Shown: in pieces, positions 1 to 29,858 of the stretch
Layout: each line of letters opens with the position of its first letter
Numbering within the stretch: position 1 is the first letter of the stretch
NCBI GenBank assembly: GCA_964640155.1
Contig: CAZXEQ010000001.1
Span: 396,403 to 428,402, forward strand
Direction of reading: 5' to 3'
Source of the DNA: an uncultured bacterium
Lineage (GTDB): Bacteria > Auribacterota > JACPWU01
Length of the DNA stretch: 32,000 nt
Position numbers and translations under genes: made by a program
The notes under the pieces: model-generated
What the model was told of the DNA's origin: nothing
What the model saw: only the letters and a program-made list of their open reading frames with translations
The model's database searches: none

Positions 1-3000
1 GCGCAGGTTCCCTTCGTATGCGATCAAAAAGAACGGATTCATCTGATAATCCAAGAGACAGAGAAGAACCTATCTGCATTATTTTATAAGCTTTGTTCTG
101 GAGAGGTTCTTTTAGAAGAACATGATCCCATGAGCCTGGCAATAGAGGATCTGTAACTCCAAGCAAACTTTCCCAACTATTGATCATTCTTTCAATTCCC
201 AAGTTAGAATTCCAAAAAATATTATGAATATGATAAGAAGTCCATCTTGTCTTCAAAATTTCATAATTACTTGAATTTTTGAAAAATGCTTTAGCGTCAT
301 AAGTAGCGATCTCTTTTGATCCTTGTATCACTCTAATTGTATCTTTTCGGATATCCCAATGAAGAGAAATCGAAGCAGACCATGATGTCTTCTTAAGAGT
401 GTCTCTTAATAAGTTATGATCGAGAACTTGATCTCTTCTTGAGAATACAAGACCTCTCATATGATCAGCTCTTGCATCAAATCCTGAAACTCCATAAATC
501 CCTTGAAGAAGCGTTGTAAAAGCAGCGCGATAATAATGCTCTCTTACATCATCACTTTTAGCTAAAGCCGCACGTGTTAGAAAAACATCTACCTTGTCAT
601 AAGCAAACAGCACATATCCCTTCTCAAGGGTAATAGAATCTCCAACGTTGATACGCGTTTGAACAACATAATACGATCTTGATCCTAAAAGTTCCGCGTT
701 AAGCATAAAATGAAGCTTTCCAGAGTTTAATTTCTCTTTCAAATCAGCCCAAGAATCTAATCCTAAACTTTCAAACCACGGACGAAGACGCGCTTCACCT
801 CCCAAAACATCCAAAACAGAACCATTCACTTCAAACAGATCTTTTCCTCGGCCTTGTAATTCTTTAAGTCTAGTTTCTAAAACTTGATCTTGATCATGAA
901 CTGTTATATTTGCTTTTTCACTCCTTAAAATAACTTCTCTAAAAGCATTTTTCAATTCCAGAAAAAGCTGCTCTCGAGAATAAGTTAAAGCCATTTTCCC
1001 AACATAAATCTTCCCTTCTTTAACAATAATTCCTGGATCAGATTCCGAATCAATTACTACTTCAAAAGAAGATGGGTTTTTTCCCGTAAGAAATGCAAAG
1101 GCCTTAATAGCCCAATCGTGTAAAACTTCTGTGGAACCCTGTGGATGAACTCTTGCCATTCTCAATGAATCAAAGCTTAAGGAAAAATGCTCAAGAAGAA
1201 ACAAAAAATGAGAATAATCTTTTTCTAGATAATCCGAAGGAAGATGCACTTTAATTCCTATAGAATTAAGAGAAATCACAATTTTCCCTTGAAAATCTTT
1301 CAAGATACTGACATAGAATTTTTTCAAAGTTTGAATATATGGATCTTGTCCCAATGATGCAATCAATTTAGTAATCCATTTGGGCTGAAAATATGGATTT
1401 TGTCTCAGAGCATCTAACCATTTTTGCTTATCTACATCCTTCGTTTGTTTTAAAAGCTTTTCATAAAATTTTAAAACTTTTTCTTCTTCCTTTTCATTTT
1501 TCAGAATGGATTCGATTAAATTTGGATGACTCAACAAAAGTTCCCAGACTTTTTTCTTCACTTTATCCGCAATTTGTCCGGCCCTATCCTCTATTTCATC
1601 ATCCAATTGCAGAAGAGGATCCTTTTTCCAAGATTCCGTCATTCTCCTTAAATAATTCCAATCTTCCTCAAGAGCTGCTTGCTCCAAAATCCAAACCATT
1701 AAATCACTCAATTCGCCACATCCATCCTTTGCGTTTTCTCGACTTTGAGCATCTCGATTGTAAAAAGGTTCGTGCTGAACAGCATCTGTATGAGGGAGAT
1801 ACCCTATCCGCTCTATTAAAGGATGAACCAACGTCTGAGCTAAAATGGAAGCAGATACAGATTGCACAAAAGCTTCCGTCACATACACCCTAATAACCGC
1901 TTCTGCTTTTTCTTCAATTATATCTGTCCATTCATAAATAGGTCGGGTGCGCCCTTTTAATCGGAAACCCTTATCATCACCCATATTTATCACACAAACT
2001 TCTACGCGCCCTTCTTTAAAAACTTTGTGGCCTATTTTTAAAGGGACTTTCACATTTTGACCAAACAAAATAGCGCGAGCAATTTTTTTATGAAGACCTT
2101 CATAAAAAGGAGGAATATCTGAATTCCTCAAAGCTTCCGGAATTTTTTTCTGATTCATTTCATCACGTTGCATCACACGAATGGGATTTTTAGCAGCCAA
2201 ACCTTTCAGCTCTTTCGCTTCCAATTTAGTTAAATGGGCCTCCCCCGGAGCATGTTTAGTAGCAATTGCAGCTTGCCTTTGTCCCAAGCGTAAGCCTTCT
2301 TGAAGTAAATTCTGGAGATTACTTCGAGCTAAAGGTTCTTTTAAAAACGCCCCTATCTTTTTTGCCAATTCGTTGGGATCAAATCCTGACAATCTTCTCA
2401 TTTCCAAAATATTTTTTTGAATCAAATCTTCTATACGGAGAACGAATAAATGAGTTGAATGATTTCTAAGTAAATCTATCAAAGCATAAATAGCGTTGTC
2501 TATTCTCTCACCCTTCAAATCATTCAGAATCACTTCTAAAGTATCTCGAATAGAGACATGCTGAAATTCAAGCTCCTTATCATATTCATTTTTGATAATG
2601 ATATCCGCATCTCGACGTTCTTGATCTATTGTATAACGAAAAATAAAATTTCTTGTTTTCGGAAAATCTTTTACAAAGCGAACTTCCTCCATTTGAACTT
2701 TGCGGATTGATTCTAAAAAAGCCTTTTTTGCACTTTTAAAATATTTCTTACGATTTTTTGGAGTTCTTGCACGCTCAGATTTAAGAATCCATTTCAAGAC
2801 AGACGAAGCTAAGTCCTCTGACAAAGATTCTTCTGTTAATTTCCTTAACTGCTGAATATTATTAGCTTTTCTTGAAAGTCGGGCCAGTTGAAGTATATTT
2901 TTTTGCTGCATGAAAGGCCGAAGCCTTTCAACCAATATATCCTCATGAATTTCCATAAAAACATGAATATCTGCTTCCATAGGCTCAGTGGTTAAATCTG

Positions 3001-6000
3001 AAAATTTGTCTCGTCCATTTAATGAATACGCTCCTTCAACAATGACCAGTTTCTTTCCCTTTTTCTTTGCCTGTTCAACTTCTTTTTCCAAAGAAGATCG
3101 CTTTGAATAATCATCTGCATGAATAATAAAAATTTCAGAGGGTTTAATATCATTCAAACCCCATTGGGCAATTGCATCCACCCATGCTGTTTTTCCTGAT
3201 CCGGGGCGGCCTCCTACACGCACAATAACAGGCCCCTTTCTTTTAGACTTTATCGCGGATACTTTCATAAATAAATCGCCATAAGCCTCTCTAACTTCTT
3301 TTCTCTGAACTCCCCAACGGTTTTTAATCTTTTTACGATAAGGATATGTTCCTGACCGTAAGGTTCCTTTCCTTAATCCAAATCCATCTCTTTGTTCAAA
3401 CCTTTCTATATCGTCTATCGTTAATATTCCTTCTTCTCCAGGAAGTGTCACATGTATATCTCTTTCTGTTATCCATCTTTCACCTTTAGCCCCATGCAAA
3501 ATTTTATGACAAGCAATTGAAAGAATGCTCGCGATTTTTTGGAAACGCTGAAGCATCACTGAATCTATATTTTCATCTACATCTAATTCTGTCTGGGAAG
3601 CTGAAGCAACTTCTTTTGGAAGGGGTTGATAAGCATCTATTCCTTCTTCCATATAAGCATTCAAAACATGTTCTAAATCTGATAATGTTTCGACTCTATT
3701 GCTCTGCCCTTTAAGTTGCGGAATTTCCTCAGATAAGACTTTATTGATAAGCTTTCTAGCCTCATCATAACCAAACGCATCCATGACTCCATCTCCTAAG
3801 CAACGGACCGAGATATTGCTTATCCTACTGTATTGAAAGTTTAAAATATCTAATACTTGCGCTAAAGCCATCGGTTTTTCAGAAACTCGATCAAGATCCA
3901 CAAAAACAACACGATAATCTCCTTCTGCGGTTTTAATCATCATGATATTTTCTGGGGTAGGATCATCAATGATATGCCCATTTAAAACCTTCCACATGTC
4001 TAAAACGCCAGAAACAGCAGAGCGATAAAGCTTGTCCATTGCTTTAAAATAATCGGCTTCTGAAATAACTCGTTGGGCCTTCTGTGTTGCAAGATCTAAG
4101 CATAGTCTCTTTAAAGAAACTGCCTTTACCTTGCCTTCAGAATAAACTGTCACTTTCTCTCCCCCATTTAACTGTACATCCACATGAGGACCAATACTTG
4201 GATGCATACCTGCTGCTTTTAAAGCAAAACCAGCTTCTCTAGCCCTACGACGAGCTTCAGGAGTAACATCAGTTTGAGACCTAAAAACTTTCAAAATAAA
4301 AATATATTCATTTTTCTGAGAAATTTGTGCTCCCGATTGAACAACCACTTCGTAAACACGCTTTCTACTACCTTCATCTCCCCACAAACGAATTTCAATA
4401 GAAGCAATATCTTCAGGAGCTATAGAAATGCCATAAATAGAACGTAACGCCTCAATCACCATCGGTTGAACTTTTTCTCCTTGAAATCTCATAGTTTTAA
4501 TCAGTGCTCTTTGAATTACTTCTGTGTCACGATCTCCAATTTTTTCTTGGCGAAAATGCATTTTGGAAATTAATATATCTTTGAACTTTGAATCTTCAAC
4601 CCCAGACGCCTCATATCGATCGTCTAATTCTTTTCGAGCAGCTTGATAAAACAAACCCTTTGGATCATTGAAATGAATAGGTTCTACATTTTCTAATTCT
4701 TCAACACTCATACAAGCAATTTCACATTGAGCCAAGGCATGTGCAGAAGTCCCTTCTAAAGCTGCATCTACGGCACAAGCAATGGCATGAGCATGTTGAA
4801 TATCTGTTTCTGTAAATATTTGATCTTCTCCATCGAATTTTCCCTTATTAAAAATTAAATCTGCTATAATTTTTGCTTCAGTATATTCATGCCGTCTCAA
4901 AATTCTTTTCGCCTCTTTACCAATATCATCCTGATCCATTCTTTTTAATAAATCTTTACGAGTTTTAATTTTTCGACTGAGGAGATCCCAATAGGCCAGA
5001 TCTCCTCCATGATCTTTACTTGGTTCAATTTTCCCCAAAGGGTAAAATTGACTTTCACTTCCTTCTTCAATTGCTAAATTGGCATACTCTGTTTTTGGAG
5101 TTTTCTTTAAAACTTTTAAAACCACAGCTACTCTTTTTTGTAAATAGATCTCTTTTTCTTGAAGAGTTTCACCTGGAGGCCAATTTTCATCTTTTCGACC
5201 TTTGGCTGGGATTTTGAGGGCGGAAGGTTTAGTAGCACGTACCAGAGAAGATTCTTCGGGATATTCCAAAAATTTTCCTGCTACATCCTCTTTTAATTTA
5301 TCAAGAATAGGATTCCTAATTTGACGAGTACACGTGATATTGCCCATCCTTTTAATCACTTCAAATATAGCCAAAAATGCTTTGACCTGAGAAATCCCTT
5401 CATCGCTGCCAAAATAGCCCTTAAGAAATTGTTCAGCTAAGCTTTGCCCTTGAGCTGGATAAGCTTGATATAGGTGCATAGTGATAAACCAAAGCTCATA
5501 GTAAAGATATCCCAAGTCTTGAGCTGCCGTTAATCCCTCTCTTTTGATAACAGAATCTAAATCATGCAAAACAGGTAGCTGACCATTTAGGATAGAAATA
5601 TTGTTATAATGCAAAAATCGATGAATAAATCCTGAGTCATGAAATTGTCGAACAACTCTTCCATATGCCATTAAAGAGTGCGGATCAAAATGCTTAAATC
5701 TTTTATCAACTTCCATCCCATCACTTAAACCGAAAGCAATAAAAGCTGTTTTTCTTCCATTCAATTCGACTCCTGGATACTCTCCCCAAACCAGTGGATA
5801 TTTTGTTTGAGCAACGCCCGAAAGAGAAGTCCGAGGAGATAAAAGAGTTGCCATTTGATATAACATTTGAGTATTTAAAAATTCTTCTAACACCCCTTTT
5901 AACCAAGCACCTCCTTGTGGGATATCACTATAGGGAATTCTCATTAAATTCCCGCCCAAATCAAATCCCATAGACTCACCCACCCCCGATCCTGCATGAG

Positions 6001-9000
6001 CAATTAAGGGTTTTCTTGCATCAAAAACAACTCCTTTTGCTTGAACATCCTTCATGGGATTATCATCATAAAGGAAACGAGGCAGATACTGAGAACGGTC
6101 TCCCAAAGAAATTTCAACAGAACGAGTATTCTTTTGTGTTTTAACATTTGTGGAAGCACAAACTGCAATTTTCAAAATCATATTTCTAACATTTTGATTT
6201 TTAATTTCATCCACATGAATTTCTTCTGCCTCTTTTTCTCCAATCAATAACTCTTTATTTACATATAGAGTAATCAAACGATCTCCTTGAGGGACAATAA
6301 CTCGCCTTGTGAATCTAAGAACCCTTTCTTTTAAACGTTTTTCTTGCTCTTCAATTACAGCGAGATAAAATTTTCTTTCAACATCATTTGGATGATGTGG
6401 TTGTATTTGACTAAGCTCTTCATCACTCATTAAAGGAATCACTAATTTCATCAAAGGATGTAAAGCCCCATTGATATGGGCGTCCAAAGCAGAAGTGATG
6501 GCATGTCGTCGATCACGATCGGACTCCTGAAAAGTTCTTTCACCTTCAGGTTTTTCCAAATCTTCGTCAATCAATTGACGAAGTAAAACATTTTCGACAT
6601 ATTCATGACGACGAAGAATTTCGATAATTTTCTGAAATCTTGCTGGGTCTGTTTTTTCTAATGCATAGATGCCATCATAAAGATCTTCACGGACATAAAT
6701 AGCTTGAATATCCCCACTGTCCCAAAACTTACAAAAGGCAAAGTCATTGTTATGTTCTGGAGGGAATTTATTTCTTTCCAAACGTTCGATCTTTAACCCT
6801 TGATAAACATTGGGATCAAGCCTTTTCAAAACCTCATTCACTTGATCTTCGCCTATGGGTTGAGATATTTTTTTGCCTTGGCCTGGGATCGCAAAAGCCC
6901 CTTCTTTTTCTAAAGAGATTCCGAAATTCCAAAGATAATGAAGAAATAATGTCAGTACAAAAACTCCTACTAAAACACCTGGGTTTATTGCAGAGGTAAA
7001 ACTCAAGAGTGCTAGAGGAGAAAAGATAAAAAGACCATTCTTAAATTGAAGCCAAAGCATTTCAAGCTTTGCATCTTTACTTCCTGGCAAATGAAGAACA
7101 GAAAAGATGATAGCCGTCACAAAGACTGGAACAAAAAGTGCCAGAGGAGCTACTCCTAGTACAGGATTCAGTGCCAAGATAAGAGGCAAACTCACCAGGA
7201 TTGAAAATGCATTTTCAAACGCGGGGCCCCATTTTGGATAACCAGGCAAATGCTTTAGCCATAGGAAAAGGGCTTTCCTTCCCCCGCGAAGTTCTTCAGA
7301 TGTAGCTGACACCACAACAGCTTGTGGTGAAACTACTTGACCTAAACTTTCTGGAGAAACTCCTTTTTCAACTAAAAATGCTTTCAATACCACTTTAAAA
7401 GGAGGAACAAGTGCAGGAGTTTGCTCATCTAACATTCTATAAAAATAACTATCTCCCCTCCCAGCTTTATCCAATAACGGATAAGCTGCTTGTAGCATCT
7501 CCAATCCATGCTCAGGATACAGTGTTAAAACACCTTGAAAAATCTCGTATAACACCCATCTTAGCTGATCTCTTGACTGGAAAGCGGTTAGATGTCCTGC
7601 CAATATCAGCAGAATATCTACCAGTTGTGTATAGGTGCTTACCAAATCTACATCAATTAATTTTCCTTCAATTACATCTACTTCTCGAGAAATTTCACGA
7701 GAAGTCATTTCTAAAATTTTTCTTATTTTATCTGCTGTTATTTGATGAAGAGCACCATCTTCGTCTTCCATGTGAGAGTCTAAAGCATGCTCTCCTAAAA
7801 AATTTACAACTACATTTCCTCCATGAGGGTCATCAATAAAAGACTTTCGCCCTGTCGCTTCCCAAGCTCTTAAATAAATTCGGACAATATTACGTAAAAG
7901 AATGGATCTCATCATTAAAGCTTCTGTCGAGGAAAGATCTCTAGATGCCTCTAAATTTCTTACTTGTTGAACAATCCTTGACCATCTCAAGCCTTTAACT
8001 ACATCATCGCTCATGACCCATACTTCCCCTCCCCCAAGTGTTCCTTTTTCAGGAGACCAGGTAGCACCCAACGCAGGATAAAGACCTTTTTCATAAAGCA
8101 TTCTTGCCATTTCATTCATCATCTGAATTTGAAAATTCCCCCATTGTTGAACAACCGCGAGAAAGAAATTAGGTTGTGTTACTTCGATAACGATTTTATG
8201 CTGTTTGCCAGTGCTTAAGATCACTTTCACTTGATAAACATGTTTCATGCCATCTTGATCTACTTTAAAGCCAATCACTTCAACAGGTCCTTCTCCTAAC
8301 TCAAGTCCATGTGTGTTCATCAAAGTTTCTTCAATAAAATTATCTGCGAAGGCTGCTTCTAAAAAATGATGATCTGGTTCTTTAACCGTTGATGATCCAT
8401 GACTCCAAATAATTTGTCTCTGACTTCTTCGAGCAAGCTCAGTTTGCACAGCACTATAAAAAGCTTGATCTTGATCGTTAGGATGAGTTTCTTGAATTTT
8501 TTGTAATTCACTTTTTCTCATAAGCAAAATGACATGTTTCATAAGAGGGTGAAAAGTGGTAGGGTTAGGATTTTCTAAACTTCCACTTCCAATAGCAGCA
8601 TCAACCGCAGAGGTTAAAAAATGCTTTTGAGCTTCATCACCTGTCGCTAAAACACCTTCTCGAATCAATTGAGGAATTAAAACATTCTCAACATATTCAT
8701 GCCGTTTAATGATTAATTGAGCAACAGGATTTTTTTGAATGCGATTCCAAAGACTTCGACGAATTTGAACTTTGTAAGTTTTTTTGTCATTGCGAGCCGC
8801 AGGCGAAGCAATCTCAACCAATCTTGCAAAATCATCTCCCTTCCCATCAAAAGATTCGACAATTTCAAATGGGAGATTTTCATAATCGTGACTCCCATCT
8901 CTTTTCAAACGTTCCAAAATCGCATCAATTTTTGCAGCGGCTGGAGGACCTTGAGCATGCGTTTCACCTGAGCCAGGGGCTTTGAGAGCTCCTGGTCTTG

Positions 9001-12000
9001 GAGAGGCCGTTGCCTGTCTTCCTCTAATTCCATCAAACCAAAATGCCATGAAATGACAACTTGGAGAAAATAAAGTTTGAATATCACTTTGAGTCAGTAA
9101 TTCTCTAAAATTTAAAGTAGGAGGTTTTTTCTTAAGTGCTGCATCGATTCTTCCGGGATCGTCAACTTTTAGACTTTTTTGTGAAAGAATTTCCCAACGA
9201 AGCATGACTTGAAAAAAAGGGGACAAATCTGGATTTCTTAAAGCTCGATCTAAAATCCAAAGTCTTTCACGGCGCTCACTGAATCTTCCCTCACGTTCAC
9301 AAAATTTTTGCAAAGAAAGATGAAATTGGCCCAAATCACTTTCAGTCCAGAAATCACCTGGAGCGAAAAGATAGGACGCCTCTCTTCTTACAATCTCTGC
9401 CTCAAGATGAAGATATTTATAAATAGCATCAAAATATTTTTTTCGAAAGGCTTCGTCGCTGACTAGCTTGCGATCTATCTCATCGGAACTTGTATATCTT
9501 GGGAAAAGTTCGTTTTTTAAAGCTTGAAATTCTTCCCTCACTTTTTTTTGTTCAATCATTTTCCCCGCCCGAATACAAAACATTTTCAAAGAAGCTGAAC
9601 GTTCTTTGGAATAGCGTAAAAACTTTGCTACGTGAACTCGGATCACATTCCCAGTTACTTCAATCGGAAAAGATTCGTCCCGCTCTTCGGGTTCTGGCGT
9701 CTCATTTATTTCAAAATGAAAAGAAGAATTTTTATTTTGAATAGCTTCTAGTAATATTTCAAAATCCTCAGAGAAAGATGGACTTTCTGGTATTTGTCTT
9801 TTTGGCATTTGTTGAGCATATTTTCTCAAAATCCTAAGAATTTTATCTTTCGGTGTCTTATCTCTATCGATCTGCCAATTATGCACATAATGAAACAAAA
9901 TTGTGATACCCGTAACCCCTATCAAAAGAGGAATCTGTGCCACAGAAAAACCAAGAAACGTCACAACAATCATTAAGGGGGAGAATAATGCCCCTCCCAT
10001 CCAAAAATATTGAACAAAAAGTTCCCACTTAGAACCAGAACCTGATTTAGGGAAATGAAATAAAGAGAATAGAGTTGGAAATCCTAGAGCAAAAACAAAA
10101 TGATAAAATAAATCGCTTCTAGTTATAAAAGGAAGACCCGTCACAGCAGTGAGAATCGCAAAGAGTCCAAAATTAAGTAGAATTACAAAAACATTTTCAA
10201 AGGTCGGGCCCCATTTTTCATAATTTTTTAAATGTCTAAGCCAAGGGAAAAGGGCAAATTTTTCAAAAACAACTCTTGCCTCATCAGGCCTTAAAATATT
10301 TTTTGCAAAACCTATCTCTCCTTTTAGCACCTTATCCATATCTACAGCATCCAAACATAAACTTAATAGAAAAGGTTTACCAACACTTAGTTTTTTTTCT
10401 ATCCGAGAGCGTGAATTTGAACCCAATCCTGATGTTTCTTTTTCTAGTTCAAAACGAATCACCACTTGAAAGACAGGAGATAGTTCTGGATTTTCCAACA
10501 TCCGATCAAGGGCAAAAAACCTTAAACTTACATCATCATAAGGACGACCTCCATTCCATCTAACAACATCTGATGTTGACTGGTTAGGATCGTGAGCATA
10601 ACCATGGTTTTTAAAATACTCTAAACAAGCACGATCCTTCTGCATTCTCAACGTCAAATTATTTTGACTCCAAGTAAAATAGAGGCCTTGCAACCAAGGA
10701 TCTGCTTTGAAATTCTCATAAACTGTTTGAGCTGTTTCTTCCTTTGGATAAAGTTTCTTTTTCTGCTGTATTAACTCTCGCATCTTTTCTTGTTGTTCTA
10801 AAAAACCAGAAAAGCTAATGCAAAAAATCTCCAAATCTAAAGAACCCCCTTCATCCCCCGGCATAAAAGCGGCATAATCTAAAACAACTTTACCTTTTAT
10901 TAGTTGAATGGGAGGACTTGATGCTTCTGGTTTAGGAGTAACACCCAAAAACGGACCATTCTCTACTTCAATATCACCCGCTTTCAAGAGCTCTATCAAA
11001 TAATAAAATTTTTGTTTCTCAGTAAAATCATTTGTTTTGTCGTGAAATTTCTGGAAAATAGCTAAAATTTCTAATTGTGTATTGTCTAAATTGGGTACTT
11101 CTATAGATTGATGTTCAACCTTTCTTTCAACACTTTCACCATTCATAACTTTATTCCAAAGAGACAAAAACTCATTCCAAAAGAAATGAAGGGTAAATGA
11201 AAGAGCAAGAACCCATCCAAAAATAATTTGATTCATAATCAACGCAGGAAAACCTAAAACAAAAACAGATAAAATGAGAGGAGAAAGAATAAACAATCCA
11301 CTTATCAGCTGATCATGAAAAACCTTACTTTTTTCATTCCATGCAGTCCCCGGTAAATGAGACAAAGCAAATACGAATGGCAAAGCTATTGCTGAAACAA
11401 TCCGAATCATCGGACTAGGATGGTTGATAGCTTCAATACAGAAAGATTTTGTTGCAGCAACCCAAGGGCGAGATTCATCTAAAATTCCCCACTCAAAGAG
11501 CTTCATTGCAATCGCAAAAGGCGCTGCACTCCATCCAACTGCCCACAAATTTTCAAAAATGGGGCCCCATTTTGAATAACCAGGCAAATGCTTAAGCCAA
11601 GGGAAAAGGGCTTTATCATCTTGAATTGTTTGAGGGTTTCTTCTTTGAAGCTCTTGTTGAACCGCATTATAAAATTCTTTTCGAGTATCATTCGGATGCT
11701 TCTCTTGGATGGCCTCAAGCTCTGATTTTTTCATAACTTGAATCACACGCTTCATCAAGGCATGGACAGAATTGGGTTTTCTCTGGTCAATACTCCCATC
11801 CCCAATTCTTTCATCTACAATAGAGGCAAGTGTATGTGCTTGGGTTAAATCATCCGAATTCAAAGCGCCTAGCCTAAACAATCGAGGAATTACAACATGT
11901 TGTAGCCAAGCATGACGTCTCAAAATCAATTGAGCATCAGAATCTTCTTTAATTTGATTCCAAAGATGTCGATGAATTTTAAGAGTAGGTTTGAATTGAT

Positions 12001-15000
12001 GTGTTGAGGGATCTTGAACAGAAATCAATCGAACTAAGCTACCTTCGTCTTCTAAAGAATCCACAACCTCAAAAGGAATACACGCATATTCAGCGATATC
12101 TTCTTTTCGAAGAGCTGTAAGCATCGCATCAATTTTTGCAGGATCAGGAGGACCTTGAATGCGTGTCTCTCCCTGCCCAGGAATTTTAAAAACAACTAGA
12201 TCTAAACCCTCTTGCCATCTCTGTGTTTCCTCTGATTTTCTCATCTGAAAATCTTTAATGCGTTCTGCTAACTCCAGGGGATCCATTTTTCCATCGAATA
12301 GGTATCCTCGGGGAAGTTTTCCCATAATCTCCTCAAGTAATTGCGGATTGTCCGGAAATTCCTCCAAGAAAACTTCAAAAAGAAAGTCCATATTCTCGCC
12401 CGAAAATCTATGAAAAAATTCATCGGCAATCAAAAGAAGGATTTTGACGATATCATCAGAAGGAATCACAACATCTGCATCTATTAGGTAAAAGCCTCGA
12501 GGGAAATCTGCAATTAATCTTTCAATATTCTCTTGTGTCACAACTTGATCTTTAGGCCAGTCCACCATTAAATTTCCAAGAAAAGAATCAAAAATAAACA
12601 TTTTTTTCTCAGAAGTTTTCCATACATGAATATAAAATCGAGCTAAAGCTTTAAATAAATCTCTCCTTAATTTGTAATACACCTCAGCGGACATTCTTTT
12701 TTCATCAAATTCTTTTTTCAATGCTCTGATTAAATTCCCTCCATTTTTACCTTCAACATATTCCTCACTGAAAACCCAGACTTTTTTTGTATGCCTGACT
12801 TCTTGAATTTCTCCCTCCCACATTCCTCCAAAACCTGGATAGCACCCCTTTTCAGACCACATTTGAGTTTGTTCTACAATCATTGAGGATTGTGTATGGT
12901 GAGCACTTTCATCAAACCCTTCGTAAAATCTAGGTTGTGTGACTTTAAAAACAATTGTTTTTATTCCTCCCCCCTTCAAAGGCAATATCAACTGATAAAC
13001 ATGTTTCATTGCATTTTTTCGCAAAGAAACAGGAATAACTTGAATTGGAGCTTGCTTATCCAAATCAACTTCTTCTCCATAAATATTAATAAGAGATGTT
13101 TCGAGAAAACCATCCTTTAAAGCTCTCAAAATGAGATCTCGATCCCGGGGAGGAGTAGGTGCAGCAATTCTCTTCCACTCTAAACGACGAATGACTTTTT
13201 CCCTTTCTCCTAGCTCACGTTTAGCTGCTTTCTGAAAGGCTCCTGCTGGGTCATTCGGATGCCTGCTTTTAACTGCTTTTAATTCTTCATTGTTCAACAA
13301 AGGAATCGTATGCTTCATTAAAGCATGATAAGAAGTTTTTTCTAGTTGAGCATCAATACGGGAAGCAATGGCATGGGCTTCTCTAACTTGATCTTCTTCT
13401 AAAGTTTCAAAATCAGATTTTCCAACATTGGCAGGCAAACCTCGCTTTAAACTGGGAACAAGCACATATTCAATATATTTACGACGTATCAAAATGAGCA
13501 AAGCCTCTTGATCGTTTTTAATTCGATTCCAAAGATGACGATGAATTTTAATTTCCCCATATTCATGATCATAATAAGCAAGATCTTGAGCTAGCCCCTT
13601 AGGCAATACATCGACGACATCAAAATAACTAGAAAGATCTTCATTCGATGTTTTCAATTTTTCGAGTTCTCGGAATTTTTCTGAATCTCGCCACTCGTTT
13701 AAAACAAAGTCTACCGCATAGTTCATTCTTCCTTCGGGAATCGGGTTTTTGACCAGATCGCGTCTTTGAGTCATTTCTGGGATATAGGAAGTCAAAAATT
13801 GGTAAGCTTCTCTTCCAAGAGCTCCTCCCCCATTTTCAAAAACAGCTTTTGAAGCCACACGTAAAAAGTCTTCGGCAGGTATCATTTGAAGGTGATAAGA
13901 GCCCATGGCTCCATCGGCTAAAACTTGAATGCCCTGGTCCAGCCACAATGCCTTTGAGCTTTTAGAAACAAAACTTAAAACAAAAGCCTCTTTCCCTTTC
14001 TTCACTAAAACAAAACGCGCTTTCCCAGACACAATCTCTCTAGGGAAAAATCGCAAATCAGCAATGTCAGGGAAATCTTTTTTCAAGGCCGCATGCCTTT
14101 TTGCCAAAACTTCCGCAATATTGGAAATTTGTCCTGCTATGGCTTCTCCTCCTGCGGTCATTTCAAATTCTATACGAAGGGTGGACTCTAATTGTCTGGC
14201 GACATCGGCATCACCAACCAGAGCATGCAAAAGAGAGCCTTGATGAAGTGTATGGGAAGTAGAAGCTAACTTTTGCTCAAATGCTGAGGTTTTCCCTAAC
14301 ATTCGAGCACGATAGAGAGCTTCCGTCTTCTGGTCTACTCCTTGGGTTTGAGGTGTAATGACGGTATATGAAATATTTTCATTTTCAAAAAACTGTGTGA
14401 AAGAATCTGTATGAAATCCACCTGTGACAAGGACGACAACAGATCGGTTTGTTTCTTTCATCCTTTTCAACGTGTTCTCGTAAAGGATGTGATCTCTTTT
14501 TTGAGCCAATTCATAAAACTTCTCGAATGGGGAAAGATCAAAAGAGACAGGACCTGCAATTTTTTCTAACCATAATATTTTTTCATCTTTTATTTCTAAA
14601 AATTCTTTTAACTCTTTTCGACTTAACTTAAGAGAAATCAGTTTTTCAACAAGACAAAGAGTTTGTACTTCTTTCCAAAATTGCTTTTCTTCAGAAGATT
14701 GAAACAACTGATCCGCTACAAGAAGTTCAAGCTGTTTTATTTCATTAGAAATTTTTGCATGATCAAGTTTTGCCCCCAACTTCACAAAGTCAATGTATTG
14801 AGACAAGTCCGGATAAGATTTAAGCGTCTCTTCTCCTACCAAATTTTTCATCTCTGCAAAATAAACATCGTCCTTTATACGCCCCAGTCGATATTCCAAC
14901 CCCTTACGAATCCATTCTTGAAGCTCTTCTCTTGGGAGTTGTTGACTCAGTTTCTCATTAAGCAAATTTCTTTCTTTTTCTATCTTCTCAGGTTTTAACT

Positions 15001-15799
15001 CTTTCTGAAGTTGCATCATTTTTTGAAAACGCGTCAGATTAGGGAAGGAAGAGATTTGGACAGAATGAGACATTTTAAAAAGAAAGTTTAAATAACTTTT
15101 AAAAGAAATATTACCTTTTTGATAACTCCTATATTTTTTAAGAAAAGACTGTTTTTCAGAAGAAATATTTTTTAAAAAATCTCTATTTTTTGTTTCGCAG
15201 ATTTTCAACCACTGTTTTGCCTGCTTTTGAAAAGCTGCGCAAGATTGATAAGCCTCTTTATTTTCCAAATAAATTTTTTCATCCTCAATCCCAAAAATTT
15301 CTGGTTTCCATTCTGGATGAATAATCGAAAAAAATTCTGGACCTGTGAATTTAGCTTTGCTCAAAAAATAATCAGCCGCATCTTCCTTAATCTGCCGTTC
15401 GGGAAAACTCGAGAAAAACTCAGAATCAATAGGTCCCGTGGCTCCCTCCATTCCAATTAAAATTCCCTTTTCAATTTCACCCGGCGCATTACTTTCGAGA
15501 AAACCATAAATACGTTCTAAAATCTGAGAAATATGTTTTTGAGCCTGAACATCCACGTGAAGATCTTGAATATGAATCACCCAAGGGGCAGAATCACGAG
15601 ATAAATCACTCCAAGATTTTTGAATATTCCCTAATTCAGAAGGAAGAGACAGCTCTCTTTTGGGGGCTATGCCACTACTTAATCTATTTGTAGACAATGA
15701 ATTATGACTTTCCTCAAGAAGCGCACAAACATCTTGAGAAAATTGATTAAAAACAAAAAAAAGCAGTACCAATATCTTCAAACCAGAGTTATTTTTCAT
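1..15799 (-). CDS. Giant multidomain membrane protein; N-terminus complete, C-terminus beyond the left window edge (>5,266 codons in window)
   Basis: ATG at 15799-15797, with an alternative in-frame GTG at 15835 just after an in-frame TGA. Reading the minus strand in the frame whose codons sit on plus-strand triplets starting at positions equal to 2 mod 3, I found no TAA/TAG/TGA down to position 2. The ORF track has no minus-strand ORF in this frame, consistent with an ORF lacking a stop in the window. All listed ORFs in 1-15.8 kb are 60-166 aa and in other frames. The product begins MKNNSGLKILVLLFFVFNQFSQDVCALL (signal/anchor-like) and reads as coherent protein with recognisable repeated modules throughout. 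Confidence 0.85.
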   Translation of the reverse strand, partial: MKNNSGLKILVLLFFVFNQFSQDVCALLEESHNSLSTNRLSSGIAPKRELSLPSELGNIQKSWSDLSRDSAPWVIHIQDLHVDVQAQKHISQILERIYGFLESNAPGEIEKGILIGMEGATGPIDSEFFSSFPERQIKEDAADYFLSKAKFTGPEFFSIIHPEWKPEIFGIEDEKIYLENKEAYQSCAAFQKQAKQWLKICETKNRDFLKNISSEKQSFLKKYRSYQKGNISFKSYLNFLFKMSHSVQISSFPNLTRFQKMMQLQKELKPEKIEKERNLLNEKLSQQLPREELQEWIRKGLEYRLGRIKDDVYFAEMKNLVGEETLKSYPDLSQYIDFVKLGAKLDHAKISNEIKQLELLVADQLFQSSEEKQFWKEVQTLCLVEKLISLKLSRKELKEFLEIKDEKILWLEKIAGPVSFDLSPFEKFYELAQKRDHILYENTLKRMKETNRSVVVLVTGGFHTDSFTQFFENENISYTVITPQTQGVDQKTEALYRARMLGKTSAFEQKLASTSHTLHQGSLLHALVGDADVARQLESTLRIEFEMTAGGEAIAGQISNIAEVLAKRHAALKKDFPDIADLRFFPREIVSGKARFVLVKKGKEAFVLSFVSKSSKALWLDQGIQVLADGAMGSYHLQMIPAEDFLRVASKAVFENGGGALGREAYQFLTSYIPEMTQRRDLVKNPIPEGRMNYAVDFVLNEWRDSEKFRELEKLKTSNEDLSSYFDVVDVLPKGLAQDLAYYDHEYGEIKIHRHLWNRIKNDQEALLILIRRKYIEYVLVPSLKRGLPANVGKSDFETLEEDQVREAHAIASRIDAQLEKTSYHALMKHTIPLLNNEELKAVKSRHPNDPAGAFQKAAKRELGEREKVIRRLEWKRIAAPTPPRDRDLILRALKDGFLETSLINIYGEEVDLDKQAPIQVIPVSLRKNAMKHVYQLILPLKGGGIKTIVFKVTQPRFYEGFDESAHHTQSSMIVEQTQMWSEKGCYPGFGGMWEGEIQEVRHTKKVWVFSEEYVEGKNGGNLIRALKKEFDEKRMSAEVYYKLRRDLFKALARFYIHVWKTSEKKMFIFDSFLGNLMVDWPKDQVVTQENIERLIADFPRGFYLIDADVVIPSDDIVKILLLIADEFFHRFSGENMDFLFEVFLEEFPDNPQLLEEIMGKLPRGYLFDGKMDPLELAERIKDFQMRKSEETQRWQEGLDLVVFKIPGQGETRIQGPPDPAKIDAMLTALRKEDIAEYACIPFEVVDSLEDEGSLVRLISVQDPSTHQFKPTLKIHRHLWNQIKEDSDAQLILRRHAWLQHVVIPRLFRLGALNSDDLTQAHTLASIVDERIGDGSIDQRKPNSVHALMKRVIQVMKKSELEAIQEKHPNDTRKEFYNAVQQELQRRNPQTIQDDKALFPWLKHLPGYSKWGPIFENLWAVGWSAAPFAIAMKLFEWGILDESRPWVAATKSFCIEAINHPSPMIRIVSAIALPFVFALSHLPGTAWNEKSKVFHDQLISGLFILSPLILSVFVLGFPALIMNQIIFGWVLALSFTLHFFWNEFLSLWNKVMNGESVERKVEHQSIEVPNLDNTQLEILAIFQKFHDKTNDFTEKQKFYYLIELLKAGDIEVENGPFLGVTPKPEASSPPIQLIKGKVVLDYAAFMPGDEGGSLDLEIFCISFSGFLEQQEKMRELIQQKKKLYPKEETAQTVYENFKADPWLQGLYFTWSQNNLTLRMQKDRACLEYFKNHGYAHDPNQSTSDVVRWNGGRPYDDVSLRFFALDRMLENPELSPVFQVVIRFELEKETSGLGSNSRSRIEKKLSVGKPFLLSLCLDAVDMDKVLKGEIGFAKNILRPDEARVVFEKFALFPWLRHLKNYEKWGPTFENVFVILLNFGLFAILTAVTGLPFITRSDLFYHFVFALGFPTLFSLFHFPKSGSGSKWELFVQYFWMGGALFSPLMIVVTFLGFSVAQIPLLIGVTGITILFHYVHNWQIDRDKTPKDKILRILRKYAQQMPKRQIPESPSFSEDFEILLEAIQNKNSSFHFEINETPEPEERDESFPIEVTGNVIRVHVAKFLRYSKERSASLKMFCIRAGKMIEQKKVREEFQALKNELFPRYTSSDEIDRKLVSDEAFRKKYFDAIYKYLHLEAEIVRREASYLFAPGDFWTESDLGQFHLSLQKFCEREGRFSERRERLWILDRALRNPDLSPFFQVMLRWEILSQKSLKVDDPGRIDAALKKKPPTLNFRELLTQSDIQTLFSPSCHFMAFWFDGIRGRQATASPRPGALKAPGSGETHAQGPPAAAKIDAILERLKRDGSHDYENLPFEIVESFDGKGDDFARLVEIASPAARNDKKTYKVQIRRSLWNRIQKNPVAQLIIKRHEYVENVLIPQLIREGVLATGDEAQKHFLTSAVDAAIGSGSLENPNPTTFHPLMKHVILLMRKSELQKIQETHPNDQDQAFYSAVQTELARRSQRQIIWSHGSSTVKEPDHHFLEAAFADNFIEETLMNTHGLELGEGPVEVIGFKVDQDGMKHVYQVKVILSTGKQHKIVIEVTQPNFFLAVVQQWGNFQIQMMNEMARMLYEKGLYPALGATWSPEKGTLGGGEVWVMSDDVVKGLRWSRIVQQVRNLEASRDLSSTEALMMRSILLRNIVRIYLRAWEATGRKSFIDDPHGGNVVVNFLGEHALDSHMEDEDGALHQITADKIRKILEMTSREISREVDVIEGKLIDVDLVSTYTQLVDILLILAGHLTAFQSRDQLRWVLYEIFQGVLTLYPEHGLEMLQAAYPLLDKAGRGDSYFYRMLDEQTPALVPPFKVVLKAFLVEKGVSPESLGQVVSPQAVVVSATSEELRGGRKALFLWLKHLPGYPKWGPAFENAFSILVSLPLILALNPVLGVAPLALFVPVFVTAIIFSVLHLPGSKDAKLEMLWLQFKNGLFIFSPLALLSFTSAINPGVLVGVFVLTLFLHYLWNFGISLEKEGAFAIPGQGKKISQPIGEDQVNEVLKRLDPNVYQGLKIERLERNKFPPEHNNDFAFCKFWDSGDIQAIYVREDLYDGIYALEKTDPARFQKIIEILRRHEYVENVLLRQLIDEDLEKPEGERTFQESDRDRRHAITSALDAHINGALHPLMKLVIPLMSDEELSQIQPHHPNDVERKFYLAVIEEQEKRLKERVLRFTRRVIVPQGDRLITLYVNKELLIGEKEAEEIHVDEIKNQNVRNMILKIAVCASTNVKTQKNTRSVEISLGDRSQYLPRFLYDDNPMKDVQAKGVVFDARKPLIAHAGSGVGESMGFDLGGNLMRIPYSDIPQGGAWLKGVLEEFLNTQMLYQMATLLSPRTSLSGVAQTKYPLVWGEYPGVELNGRKTAFIAFGLSDGMEVDKRFKHFDPHSLMAYGRVVRQFHDSGFIHRFLHYNNISILNGQLPVLHDLDSVIKREGLTAAQDLGYLYYELWFITMHLYQAYPAQGQSLAEQFLKGYFGSDEGISQVKAFLAIFEVIKRMGNITCTRQIRNPILDKLKEDVAGKFLEYPEESSLVRATKPSALKIPAKGRKDENWPPGETLQEKEIYLQKRVAVVLKVLKKTPKTEYANLAIEEGSESQFYPLGKIEPSKDHGGDLAYWDLLSRKIKTRKDLLKRMDQDDIGKEAKRILRRHEYTEAKIIADLIFNKGKFDGEDQIFTETDIQHAHAIACAVDAALEGTSAHALAQCEIACMSVEELENVEPIHFNDPKGLFYQAARKELDDRYEASGVEDSKFKDILISKMHFRQEKIGDRDTEVIQRALIKTMRFQGEKVQPMVIEALRSIYGISIAPEDIASIEIRLWGDEGSRKRVYEVVVQSGAQISQKNEYIFILKVFRSQTDVTPEARRRAREAGFALKAAGMHPSIGPHVDVQLNGGEKVTVYSEGKVKAVSLKRLCLDLATQKAQRVISEADYFKAMDKLYRSAVSGVLDMWKVLNGHIIDDPTPENIMMIKTAEGDYRVVFVDLDRVSEKPMALAQVLDILNFQYSRISNISVRCLGDGVMDAFGYDEARKLINKVLSEEIPQLKGQSNRVETLSDLEHVLNAYMEEGIDAYQPLPKEVASASQTELDVDENIDSVMLQRFQKIASILSIACHKILHGAKGERWITERDIHVTLPGEEGILTIDDIERFEQRDGFGLRKGTLRSGTYPYRKKIKNRWGVQRKEVREAYGDLFMKVSAIKSKRKGPVIVRVGGRPGSGKTAWVDAIAQWGLNDIKPSEIFIIHADDYSKRSSLEKEVEQAKKKGKKLVIVEGAYSLNGRDKFSDLTTEPMEADIHVFMEIHEDILVERLRPFMQQKNILQLARLSRKANNIQQLRKLTEESLSEDLASSVLKWILKSERARTPKNRKKYFKSAKKAFLESIRKVQMEEVRFVKDFPKTRNFIFRYTIDQERRDADIIIKNEYDKELEFQHVSIRDTLEVILNDLKGERIDNAIYALIDLLRNHSTHLFVLRIEDLIQKNILEMRRLSGFDPNELAKKIGAFLKEPLARSNLQNLLQEGLRLGQRQAAIATKHAPGEAHLTKLEAKELKGLAAKNPIRVMQRDEMNQKKIPEALRNSDIPPFYEGLHKKIARAILFGQNVKVPLKIGHKVFKEGRVEVCVINMGDDKGFRLKGRTRPIYEWTDIIEEKAEAVIRVYVTEAFVQSVSASILAQTLVHPLIERIGYLPHTDAVQHEPFYNRDAQSRENAKDGCGELSDLMVWILEQAALEEDWNYLRRMTESWKKDPLLQLDDEIEDRAGQIADKVKKKVWELLLSHPNLIESILKNEKEEEKVLKFYEKLLKQTKDVDKQKWLDALRQNPYFQPKWITKLIASLGQDPYIQTLKKFYVSILKDFQGKIVISLNSIGIKVHLPSDYLEKDYSHFLFLLEHFSLSFDSLRMARVHPQGSTEVLHDWAIKAFAFLTGKNPSSFEVVIDSESDPGIIVKEGKIYVGKMALTYSREQLFLELKNAFREVILRSEKANITVHDQDQVLETRLKELQGRGKDLFEVNGSVLDVLGGEARLRPWFESLGLDSWADLKEKLNSGKLHFMLNAELLGSRSYYVVQTRINVGDSITLEKGYVLFAYDKVDVFLTRAALAKSDDVREHYYRAAFTTLLQGIYGVSGFDARADHMRGLVFSRRDQVLDHNLLRDTLKKTSWSASISLHWDIRKDTIRVIQGSKEIATYDAKAFFKNSSNYEILKTRWTSYHIHNIFWNSNLGIERMINSWESLLGVTDPLLPGSWDHVLLKEPLQNKAYKIMQIGSSLSLGLSDESVLFDRIRREPA
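2590..3260 (-). other. P-loop nucleoside-kinase-like domain (uridine kinase / PRK family-like)
   Basis: GPVIVRVGGRPGSGKTAWV (Walker A, nt about 3188-3214) ... IFIIHADDYS ... KKLVIVEGAYSL ... ADIHVFMEIHEDILVERL ... RRDADIIIKNEY. The order and spacing match the Udk/PRK layout as I remember it. Confidence 0.6.
3880..4400 (-). other. Protein-kinase-like domain 4 (motifs most complete)
   Basis: RKRVYEVVVQSG...EYIFILKVFRS (beta3 Lys) ... EARRRAREAGFAL ... NGHIIDDPTPENIMM (catalytic loop) ... YRVVFVDLDRV (DFG-equivalent). I re-derived this codon by codon from 3886..3975. Confidence 0.6.
4600..4960 (-). repeat. HE-x-x-E/HPND module copy 5 (HFND variant)
   Basis: GKEAKRILRRHEYTEAKIIADL ... IQHAHAIACAVDAALEG ... 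CMSVEELENVEPIHFNDPKGLFY. Confidence 0.55.
5500..6060 (-). other. SelO/YdiU-like pseudokinase-fold domain with substituted active-site residues (tentative)
   Basis: DLGGNLMRIPYSDIPQGGAWLKGVLEEFLNTQML...SPRTSLSGV ... KRFKHFD ... GFIHRFLHYNNISILNGQLPVLHDLD is colinear with the remembered E. coli YdiU segments [33 protein letters not shown]...PTTRALSIV ... LRFGHFE ... [21 protein letters not shown]. The LKGAG lysine and the TDN aspartate are not conserved here. Confidence 0.45.
6340..6900 (-). repeat. Linker motif plus HE-x-x-E/HPND module copy 4
   Basis: AIPGQGKKISQPIGEDQVNEVLKRL ... ARFQKIIEILRRHEYVENVLLRQL ... RRHAITSALDAHING ... HPLMKLVIPLMSDEELSQIQPHHPNDVERKFY. Confidence 0.6.
6920..7275 (-). 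other. CPBP/Abi-like intramembrane protease core 3
   Basis: ALFLWLKHLPGYPKWGPAFENAF ... IIFSVLHLPGS (FxxxH) ... LTLFLHYLWNF (HxxxN). By my count the motif spacing is about 43 and about 52 residues. Confidence 0.55.
7600..8260 (-). other. Protein-kinase-like domain 2 (ABC1/UbiB- or APH-like catalytic loop)
   Basis: MKHVYQVKVILSTGKQHKIVIEV ... GRKSFIDDPHGGNVVVN (compare HxDxHPGN of atypical kinases) ... GKLIDVDLV (DFG-equivalent). Confidence 0.55.
8440..8985 (-). repeat. Linker motif plus HE-x-x-E/HPND module copy 3
   Basis: KAPGSGETHAQGPPAAAKIDAILERL ... LPFEIVESFDG ... VQIRRSLWNRIQKNPVAQLIIKRHEYVENVLIPQL ... KHFLTSAVDAAIG ... HPLMKHVILLMRKSELQKIQETHPNDQDQAFY. Confidence 0.6.
9870..10255 (-). 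other. CPBP/Abi-like intramembrane protease core 2
   Basis: ALFPWLRHLKNYEKWGPTFENVF ... TLFSLFHFPKSG (FxxxH) ... ITILFHYVHNW (HxxxN). Confidence 0.5.
11165..11615 (-). other. CPBP/Abi-like intramembrane protease core 1 (about 4 TM helices)
   Basis: ALFPWLKHLPGYSKWGPIFENLW (motif 1-like, E-N in place of E-E) ... LPFVFALSHLPG (FxxxH) ... LSFTLHFFWNEF (HxxxN). Hydrophobic helices lie between the motifs. Confidence 0.55.
11640..12190 (-). repeat. Linker motif plus HE-x-x-E/HPND module copy 2 (variant RRHAWLQH)
   Basis: KIPGQGETRIQGPPDPAKIDAMLTAL ... IPFEVVDSLED ... LKIHRHLWNQIKEDSDAQLILRRHAWLQHVVIP ... QAHTLASIVDE ... HALMKRVIQVMKKSELEAIQEKHPNDTRKEFY. Confidence 0.6.
12440..13020 (-). other. 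Protein-kinase-like domain 1 (catalytic loop degenerate)
   Basis: MKHVYQLILPLKGGGIKTIVFKV ... FIFDSFLGNLMVDW ... FYLIDADVV. It is colinear with kinase-like domains 2 and 4, but the loop reads D-S-F-L-G-N instead of DDPxxxN. Confidence 0.45.
13180..13560 (-). repeat. HE-x-x-E/HPND module copy 1 (degenerate: RRKYIEY)
   Basis: The translation reads EIKIHRHLWNRIKNDQEALLILIRRKYIEYVLVPSL...REAHAIASRIDAQL...HALMKHTIPLLNNEELKAVKSRHPNDPAGAF. It is colinear with the four other copies. Confidence 0.6.
14340..15600 (-). other. N-terminal domain of the giant protein, paralogous to the N-terminus of the 1511-aa protein; tentatively erythromycin-esterase/ChaN/TraB-GumN/TIKI-like
   Basis: The motifs WVIHIQDLHVDVQAQ, ILIGMEGATGPID and VVVLVTGGFHTDSFTQFF..ISYTVITPQT align with VIMIQDPHCVIDAQ, FIAVEGAQGEIN and CALIVGGFHIDGLKQLF..ISYVVLTPTT in the 25256..29791 product. 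The His...Glu...GGxH layout resembles the bipartite signature of the EreA/ChaN/TIKI superfamily. That comparison is from memory, not a search. Confidence 0.45.
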
Positions 15800-15885
15800 C
15801 AGGAATAAAGGTCTTTGTTGGGGTATTTTTCGCACTCATATATATGCCATATGAATAAGCGTAAGTCAAATCCCAAAGCAGAAAA

Positions 15886-21367: not shown

Positions 21368-21494
21368 ATAAAAGTATGTTCTTTTAAGAAGTAGCGGGTC
21401 CTGCCACTCGACAGCCCCATCGTGCTCACTAAAAGTTGCGCTCGATGGGGCACCCCGTCGAGTGTCACCCACATTATAAAAAACATACTTTTAT
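21368..21494. other. 127-nt imperfect long hairpin with a GC-rich core (unclassified structured element)
   Basis: The outer stem pairs ATAAAAGTATGTT with AACATACTTTTAT. The inner stems pair CACTCGAC with GTCGAGTG and CCCCATCG with CGATGGGG around a 20-nt loop. The element lies between two divergent promoters. Confidence 0.4.
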
Positions 21495-21529
21495 TCACAA
21501 GATCAGCTGCGCTGAAATTCTCATTTTTC

Positions 21530-21558
21530 TTGCTTTTGACTAAAGATTTTCATATAAT
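21530..21558 (+). promoter_or_regulatory. Candidate sigma70-type promoter for the proline-rich protein gene
   Basis: TTGCTT (21530-21535), a 17-nt spacer, then TATAAT (21553-21558). A GGTGGA SD lies 8 nt before the ATG at 21611. Confidence 0.5.
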
Positions 21559-21610
21559 TTTTTCGTTATATTTGTATGGGGGCTTAACCTTAAATCGTAG
21601 GTGGACTGCC

Positions 21611-29782: not shown

Positions 29783-29858
29783 GTTTCTCAAGATTAAAGA
29801 GTTGACAGGGATCCCCCCCCTCTTACCACGTCACCTTAGCCCTAGAAATTATTTATTT

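Follow-up and report, generated by a model that had tools for sequence, protein, structure and literature searches.

The 32,000-nucleotide stretch of bacterial DNA analysed here (positions 396,403 to 428,402 of contig CAZXEQ010000001.1; hereafter, the window) carries on its minus strand a giant gene whose protein product contains three hydrophobic blocks, and the question that this locus raises is what these blocks are. An earlier note on the same DNA took them for intramembrane protease cores of the CPBP/Abi type (PF02517) embedded in a giant enzyme mosaic. On balance, sequence comparison inclines us to the view that the blocks are very divergent modules of the Rce1/CPBP superfamily, kin of the glutamic intramembrane endopeptidases; a lower probability attaches to catalytic activity of these modules than to superfamily membership.

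A giant modular protein with three homologous four-helix membrane modules

On the minus strand, a single reading frame stays open from position 15835, with its first ATG at 15799, down to position 2 and continues past the left edge of the window. Its translation is identical to P0001, a protein of 5,277 amino acids (aa) from a 620,977-bp NCBI contig, of which only the 11 C-terminal residues lie outside the window. By hydropathy, P0001 has no hydrophobic segments other than one N-terminal stretch and the three blocks, which lie where the earlier note had placed them. The three blocks (hereafter, cores) each consist of four transmembrane (TM) helices.

2..15799, minus strand: giant gene encoding P0001, 5,277 aa (open frame and translation; the last 11 codons and the stop are outside the window)
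15722..15799, minus strand: putative N-terminal Sec-type signal peptide MKNNSGLKILVLLFFVFNQFSQDVCA, recognized by eye from the sequence; the sole hydrophobic segment besides the three cores
11156..11611, minus strand: core 1, aa 1397-1548, four-helix module with an insert of about 25 residues in the TM1-TM2 loop; key residues, from the alignment, E1416, N1417, H1481, H1538 and N1542
9860..10255, minus strand: core 2, aa 1849-1980; key residues E1868, N1869, H1915, H1970 and N1974
6908..7273, minus strand: core 3, aa 2843-2964; key residues E2862, N2863, H2903, H2954 and N2958; the copy modelled with AlphaFold2

The three cores share 30-39% identical residues in pairwise comparisons, with blastp E-values of 1e-11 to 1e-16 and hidden Markov model (HMM) E-values of 1e-47 to 1e-54. 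The ordered triad of motifs described previously is present in every core of P0001, in the form ALFPWLKHLPGYxKW-GPxFEN, FxxxH(L/F)P and H(Y/F)xxN, with 41-65 residues between motifs 1 and 2 and 50-57 between motifs 2 and 3. Across the eight cores of four proteins (P0001 and the three relatives described below), W, W, G, P, E and N of motif 1, F and H of motif 2, a G and a P, and the H of motif 3 are invariant. The FxxxH motif is located at the end of TM2, with the His directly following the last residue of the predicted helix 2, and the HxxxN motif (motif 3/4) is located in TM4, with the Asn kept in seven of the eight cores.

An AlphaFold2 model of core 3, obtained from a six-sequence alignment, is of moderate confidence (predicted local distance difference test, pLDDT, 72.5; predicted TM-score, pTM, 0.61) and contains helices at positions 14-41, 45-62, 71-94 (with a kink at the conserved Pro) and 100-126. 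For the other cores, hydropathy and alignment agree with the four helices, and core 1 alone has a longer TM1-TM2 loop. In the model, E22 and N23 are near the start of TM1, H63 is at the end of TM2, and H114 and N118 fall within the last third of TM4. By these positions, the Glu, both His and the Asn are predicted to be on the flank side of the membrane, which is compatible with one shared site.

Relatives of the cores are few. A HMMER search with the three-core profile against 1.84 billion representative proteins identifies only P0001, P0002 (4,263 aa, two cores), P0004 (3,219 aa, one core, with the motif GPLTEN) and one repeat-rich sequence, P0003, which was rejected as an artefact match. When one genome of each GTDB species is scanned, a single orthologue fragment with two cores is added, from a metagenome-assembled genome of Candidatus Auribacterota (JAYRIK010000276.1, denoted L001); metagenome scans with the core yielded no relatives, and a homologue search with the core alignment gave no matches. 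The module is therefore a rare domain family, with three clusters in 1.84 billion representatives, all of them giant proteins. The cores of P0001 and L001 are 82-88% identical (core 1, 87.6%; core 2, 82.1%), compared with 58-65% for the soluble domains A and B that are described below, indicating strong purifying selection on the cores.

Probable relation of the cores to Rce1 and CPBP proteins

The assignment of the cores to a superfamily relies on one-to-one comparisons. A CPBP profile was constructed by aligning 27 proteins with precomputed PF02517 annotation, retrieved with a consensus-like bait; given that it finds Rce1 of Methanococcus maripaludis (MmRce1, PDB entry 4CAD) with an E-value of 1e-7, this is a valid CPBP profile. 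When aligned to it with hhalign, the core profile scores 26-28 (P 4e-4 to 7e-4, probability 26-35%), and the alignment places FxxxH on FxxxH and HxxxN on HxxxN. The controls stay lower, with 8-9 for reversed profiles, a mean of 11.0 (standard deviation 2.3, maximum 18.4) for 150 shuffles of local columns, and 12-17 for three membrane proteins of the window that are unrelated. With greedy extension, all three motifs are co-linear, GPxF-EN standing opposite aPla-EE. The CPBP HMM, run unfiltered against the single cores, gives P-values of 6e-6, 3e-5 and 1.6e-4, compared with at least 3.8e-3 for the reversed cores. Finally, when an HMM of the eight cores is compared with residues 126-239 of MmRce1, 78 profile positions align with only two short gaps and score 17.5 bits (P 2e-7), with coincidences at H173, F174-P175, the conserved Gly of TM3, H227 and N231; the highest score in 6,000 shuffles is 15.0, and 17.5 bits would correspond to a PDB-wide E-value of 0.037, better than the top reported PDB match. 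By their placement in the helices, GPxF-E-N at the start of TM1 would be the counterpart of ‘TF-E-E’ in Rce1, FxxxH-(L/F)-P at the end of TM2 that of ‘FWSLWH-F-P’, and H-x-x-x-N of TM4, after a TM3 with the conserved Gly, that of ‘HFLIN’; the Rce1 residues that would be equivalent to the Glu, His, His and Asn of the cores are described as catalytic. The one-to-one tests consistently, if weakly, suggest a distant link to Rce1 and CPBP proteins.

Several observations weigh against this assignment. No match to the whole protein (E <= 0.1) is found in Pfam, including PF02517 (clan Peptidase_U), and hmmscan detects none for the isolated cores even at E <= 10, so that the earlier placement in PF02517 itself is not borne out. 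In NCBIfam, no CPBP or other model matches the cores; a PDB sequence search with the three-core and eight-core profiles under default filters returns chance-level membrane matches only, Rce1 being absent; no CPBP protein is among the matches of the core profile in the 1.84 billion representatives; and a Foldseek search of PDB with the core 3 model retrieves nothing (best E-value 4.9), Rce1 included. The unrelated protein TMEM87A reaches 16.1 bits with the core HMM in PDB, which puts the 17.5 bits obtained with Rce1 at the noise boundary for a database-wide search, and the CPBP hypothesis was picked by eye from the motifs, so that the one-to-one P-values overstate the evidence. With respect to the motifs themselves, the deviation in motif 1 that had been noticed before extends to all eight cores: only the first Glu is present, the second being replaced by Asn, and where EExxxR has its Arg, the cores have I, V, L or G, all of them hydrophobic or small. 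The motif 3 Asn is replaced by Ser in core 1 of L001. The claim that the motif spacing matches that of CPBP holds for the distance between motifs 2 and 3 when Rce1 (54 residues) is the reference, but not when the 27 short bacterial CPBPs (median 34) are, and it does not hold for the distance between motifs 1 and 2, which is 33 residues both in Rce1 and in these CPBPs.

Some of the negative results are less telling than they appear. In a control, a Foldseek search with the model of a true member of PF02517 (pLDDT 92) misses 4CAD as well and finds only SpdC, with an E-value of 2.4, so that the negative Foldseek result carries low weight. The default bias filter of HMMER removes the Rce1 match, which is reported when the --nobias option is used; thus, the empty HMM results are partly technical.

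The same negative results are what would be expected if the blocks were plain membrane anchors, i.e., paired helical hairpins in which the polar residues serve packing or lipid contacts and the likeness to CPBP is coincidental. All standard database searches being empty, an unrelated PDB protein scoring nearly as high as Rce1, the incompleteness of motif 1 together with the Ser in one orthologous core, and the shortness of motifs that were chosen by eye all fit this explanation. It is harder to reconcile with the agreement of three independent one-to-one comparisons on a single family, the motifs being co-linear and each comparison beating its own null, with the invariance of the charged or polar E, H and H within hydrophobic helices at 30-40% overall identity, and with the better preservation of the cores compared to the soluble domains A and B. 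Coincidence of this kind appears unlikely, although it deserves serious attention.

Two invariant His on different helices, with the Glu and Asn at the same face of the membrane, could also form a four-helix cofactor or metal site, e.g., that of a bis-His haem or metal bundle, or belong to some other membrane enzyme, and the lack of a confident family assignment leaves room for such a site. Nevertheless, no likeness to a cytochrome b-type or transporter family is detected in Pfam or PDB, the weak similarity that is observed is specifically to Rce1/CPBP, and the flanking domains do not suggest redox chemistry. We consider this the least probable of the explanations discussed here.

Of the earlier reading of the blocks as CPBP/Abi cores, what stands is the ordered E/F...H/H...N triad with one motif per helix, backed by the one-to-one tests, and what is not supported is the match to PF02517. 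The module is therefore not filed here under PF02517 and is described as probably a very divergent Rce1-like one; its four-helix Glu/His/His/Asn arrangement, with three copies, is not catalogued in Pfam or NCBIfam.

Orientation of the modules and the DNA box at their starts

The earlier note held that the blocks impose an alternating in/out topology on the flanking soluble domains. This was rejected on account of the even number of helices: with four helices per block, both flanks of each block are on the same side of the membrane and, as this applies to each module, all soluble domains are on one side. Which side this is predicted to be depends on the evidence used. The signal peptide, followed by three times four helices, predicts export, as do the stand-alone homologues of the N-terminal domain, nearly all of which, where full-length, start with what reads as a classic signal peptide. 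The charge bias (75 Lys and Arg on the flank side vs 5 in the hairpin loops) and the ATP-type signatures, namely, the P-loop, the kinase-like motifs and weak Hsp90/GHKL matches in P0004 (E 0.02), argue for the cytoplasm. A similar localization puzzle has been described for giant proteins of Omnitrophota (bioRxiv 10.1101/2023.11.21.568195). This paradox bears on the trust that can be placed in standard localization rules for giant proteins, independently of the protease question.

Another reading regards the blocks as insertion hairpins of an exported, effector-like protein that would insert from outside into the cell's own or a prey membrane and deliver or anchor ATP-using domains. This would accommodate the signal peptide and the exported N-terminal domain family, the hairpin tips of 3-9 residues devoid of Lys or Arg, and the ATP-type signatures on the side of the exported domain, and giant proteins of related phyla have been discussed as surface or predatory devices (bioRxiv 10.1101/2023.11.21.568195, PMC12057145). 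However, insertion as such would not require the invariant E, H, H and N, SecYEG would normally treat twelve helices of such strong hydrophobicity as stop-transfer segments, and Pfam and PDB searches reveal no likeness to known toxin translocation domains. Such an activity, which is compatible with an Rce1-like fold and not exclusive of it, appears very improbable.

If the modules are indeed divergent relatives of Rce1, they would be expected to share its core fold and to form polar, membrane-embedded hydrolytic or substrate-binding sites, with the giant protein itself or a partner as the possible substrate; alternatively, they might be non-catalytic Rce1-like scaffolds. A more elaborate scenario is a self-processing polyprotein, in which three built-in Rce1-like proteases would cut the 5,277-aa precursor, e.g., at the box ALFPWLKHLPGYxKW that precedes every module, to give separately anchored enzyme units, or in which ATP-using domains, kinase-like and NTPase, would be positioned by the modules on the exported face of the membrane and passed on to another cell. 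This scenario is improbable.

The juxtamembrane box at the start of each core is also conspicuous at the DNA level.

11549..11611, minus strand: juxtamembrane box of core 1, ALFPWLKHLPGYSKWGPIFEN, member of a direct-repeat family; contains the palindrome AAAATGGGGCCCCATTTT
10193..10255, minus strand: juxtamembrane box of core 2, ALFPWLRHLKNYEKWGPTFEN, member of the same direct-repeat family
7211..7273, minus strand: juxtamembrane box of core 3, ALFLWLKHLPGYPKWGPAFEN, member of the same direct-repeat family

The previously described match of 55 of 62 nucleotides between cores 1 and 3 is real, with a shift of 2 nucleotides in the register of core 3 (11551-11612 vs 7213-7274); core 2 matches at 48 of 62. 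Recent internal duplication, gene conversion and strong constraint had all been put forward to explain it, and codon usage helps to discriminate among them. Within the 25-codon box of cores 1 and 3, the same codon is used for 16 of the 17 identical residues, compared with 8.7 expected, a value reached in none of 20,000 simulations; in the rest of the cores there is no excess (13 of 29 vs 12.1 expected), and the copies of domain A show little. Recent duplication of whole cores was rejected because the same-codon excess does not extend outside the box. A nucleotide-level functional element in the box (palindrome GGGGCCCC) was rejected as well, given that the L001 orthologue has synonymous differences there (GGT CCT and others). 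The best reading of these sequence patterns is that short-tract gene conversion has acted among the three boxes within the lineage. The modules would have arisen by internal duplication of core-containing cassettes, the first 25 codons being homogenized subsequently by conversion.

Within the box of core 1, a perfect 18-nucleotide palindrome, AAAATGGGGCCCCATTTT, at 11555-11572, encodes KWGPIF. The sequence GGGGCCCC, with the rare codons GGC and CCC, occurs only twice in the window (7223 and 11561), both times in boxes. The palindrome looks like a by-product of gene conversion and not like a conserved site.

Other modules, neighbouring genes and known systems

Outside the cores, P0001 is a mosaic of internally repeated modules.

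14300..15652, minus strand: N-terminal domain, approximately aa 50-500 (alignment and homologue search); common to a 1,511-aa neighbour, P0002, P0004 and about 65 stand-alone proteins of about 500 aa
11627..12103, minus strand: domain A, copy 2 (HRHLWN...HPND), directly upstream of core 1
13196-13642, 8411-8896, 6320-6706 and 4610-5044, minus strand: other copies of domain A, an internal repeat with five copies in all
7442..8353, minus strand: domain B, copy 2, with a kinase-like signature (invariant K, E, DxxxxN and DxD in alignment columns)
12236-13123 and 3647-4462, minus strand: other copies of domain B, an internal repeat with three copies in all
10367..10963, minus strand: domain C, copy 1, an internal repeat, after core 1
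9113-9724, minus strand: domain C, copy 2, an internal repeat, after core 2
2900..3217, minus strand: P-loop NTPase region with the Walker A motif GRPGSGKT (weak NCBIfam and Pfam matches)

The description of P0001 as a giant enzyme mosaic is based on motif-level signatures; Pfam and NCBIfam recognize essentially nothing beyond sub-threshold signals in the P-loop region. This region matches NCBIfam models of nucleoside/nucleotide kinases with E-values of 4e-5, far under the curated cut-off, and has a weak sub-threshold Pfam match to Zeta_toxin. Domains A and B have no useful match in PDB profile searches and none in Pfam; the motifs of domain B suggest that it might be kinase-like. The core1-C-core2-C segment is the best-kept block in comparison with the L001 orthologue (78-88% identity) and is also present in P0002, so that a core and a domain C may form one functional unit. 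In the translation of L001 (approximately 1257-2748), about 1,490 extra residues, including a further copy of domain A, separate the core1-C1 region from core 2. Such a module-level insertion or deletion between close relatives indicates that these giant genes evolve by gain and loss of cassettes.

A homologue search with the N-terminal domain yields 68 matches (P0032-P0099), mostly of about 500 aa, among which no meaningful Pfam domain is detected; a PAH_ZNF598 match in two members is spurious. The family is characterized by the motifs IQDxH..xxAQ, EGAxG and GGFHxD, and the source names, where given, are mostly those of Omnitrophota, along with FCPU426 and relatives. 

The genes in the neighbourhood of the giant gene encode an Lrp/AsnC regulator, an aminotransferase, TonB, a TonB-dependent receptor, an STT3-like membrane protein, the 1,511-aa paralogue, a LON-N domain protein and a permease, and do not suggest a dedicated operon. 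The paralogue (25256-29791, minus strand) shares with P0001 only the signal peptide and the N-terminal domain of about 470 aa (blastp, 28% identity, E-value 1e-46), lacks TM cores and has no Pfam match. An HExxH motif, VLRHEIDHALD, is encoded at 25979-25993, suggesting that this protein might be a zincin-type metalloprotease, and a similar sequence, THEMIHN, is found near the C-terminus of P0004. All four long members of the family have small-residue C-termini (P0001, ...FDVAA; P0002, ...FDSAA; P0004, ...IRQSA; the protein encoded at 25256-29791, ...MMSAA), which the stand-alone homologues of the N-terminal domain lack; these could be a recognition or degradation signal or, with only four sequences, a chance likeness. 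Elsewhere in the window, an open reading frame for a 677-aa proline-rich protein (21422-23455, plus strand) with an N-terminal hydrophobic segment and no Pfam match contains 4.1 tandem copies of an 87-nucleotide unit, PPRPPLGGLRPDDHINPDVIRTAVPITTR, at 22310-22668, and lies in the most GC-rich part of the window (0.44 vs about 0.37).

Should the cores be true relatives of Rce1 and CPBP proteins, the superfamily would gain a minimal form, with four helices and with E-N as a variant in the catalytic motif, and such domains would be shown to be repeatable inside a giant modular protein. This would also provide a testable idea for the anchoring, and perhaps the processing, of bacterial giant proteins, a question that the giant-gene literature leaves open.

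Among characterized proteins, one of the closest parallels to the cores is Rce1 of M. maripaludis (4CAD), a type II CAAX prenyl endopeptidase, in which E, FxxxH and HxxxN follow each other in the same order and on the same helices, with ‘F-E’ before TM1 and ‘H-(F/L)-P’ after motif 2; the core HMM aligns to residues 158-233 of Rce1, with nearly the same distance between motifs 2 and 3. The differences are substantial. Rce1 stands alone, with about 270 aa and eight TM helices, whereas P0001 has only the four core helices, three times over, in 5,277 aa; the cores have E-N without the Arg in motif 1, and their TM1-TM2 hairpin is 8-32 residues longer. P0001 does not have a CAAX-type C-terminus, and its likeness to Rce1 is under database-wide significance.

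In bacterial CPBP/Abi proteins (PF02517; e.g., YdiL-like proteins, SpdC/LyrA, PDB entry 6U0O, and the myxosortase MrtX), the core consists of four TM helices (PMC3578759, PMC6588880), with motifs 1, 2 and 4 on TMH1, TMH2 and TMH4, as here, and remote members have an altered motif 1 (PMC3578759, PMC6588880, PMC11980579). The superfamily accepts variants such as EExxR and QExxR, includes members that are detectable only by profile-profile comparison, and some of these are non-catalytic (PMC6588880). The TM2 segment of the cores, ‘LLVSLLFGLLH’, is typical of CPBP. Compared with the 27 short CPBPs, however, the motif spacings of the cores are 8-30 residues longer, of EExxxR only the first Glu is present, and the juxtamembrane box ALFPWLKHLPGYxKW has no counterpart in the aligned sequences. 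Judging by their descriptions, the PrsW proteases and the gamma-secretase subunit APH-1 are outliers to which the cores would be comparable, although in both of them motif 1 has retained an Arg or Lys that the cores lack. Rce1, SpdC, the myxosortase and the 27 PF02517 proteins are all single-module proteins of ordinary size, in contrast to the cores, which are present in multiple copies inside a giant protein.

As a giant protein, P0001 resembles the giant multi-TM proteins of Omnitrophota and related phyla of the PVC group, which are likewise very long, poorly annotated and modular, with several TM segments and with enzyme domains whose predicted localization is puzzling (bioRxiv 10.1101/2023.11.21.568195); a term search of that study gave no mention of CAAX or CPBP. 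At 5.3 kaa, P0001 is much shorter than the Omnitrophota giants of above 30 kaa, and Pfam detects no SecA-DEAD, dockerin or peptidase domains in it. The tie between P0001 and Omnitrophota is its N-terminal domain, the stand-alone homologues of which are found mainly in that phylum.

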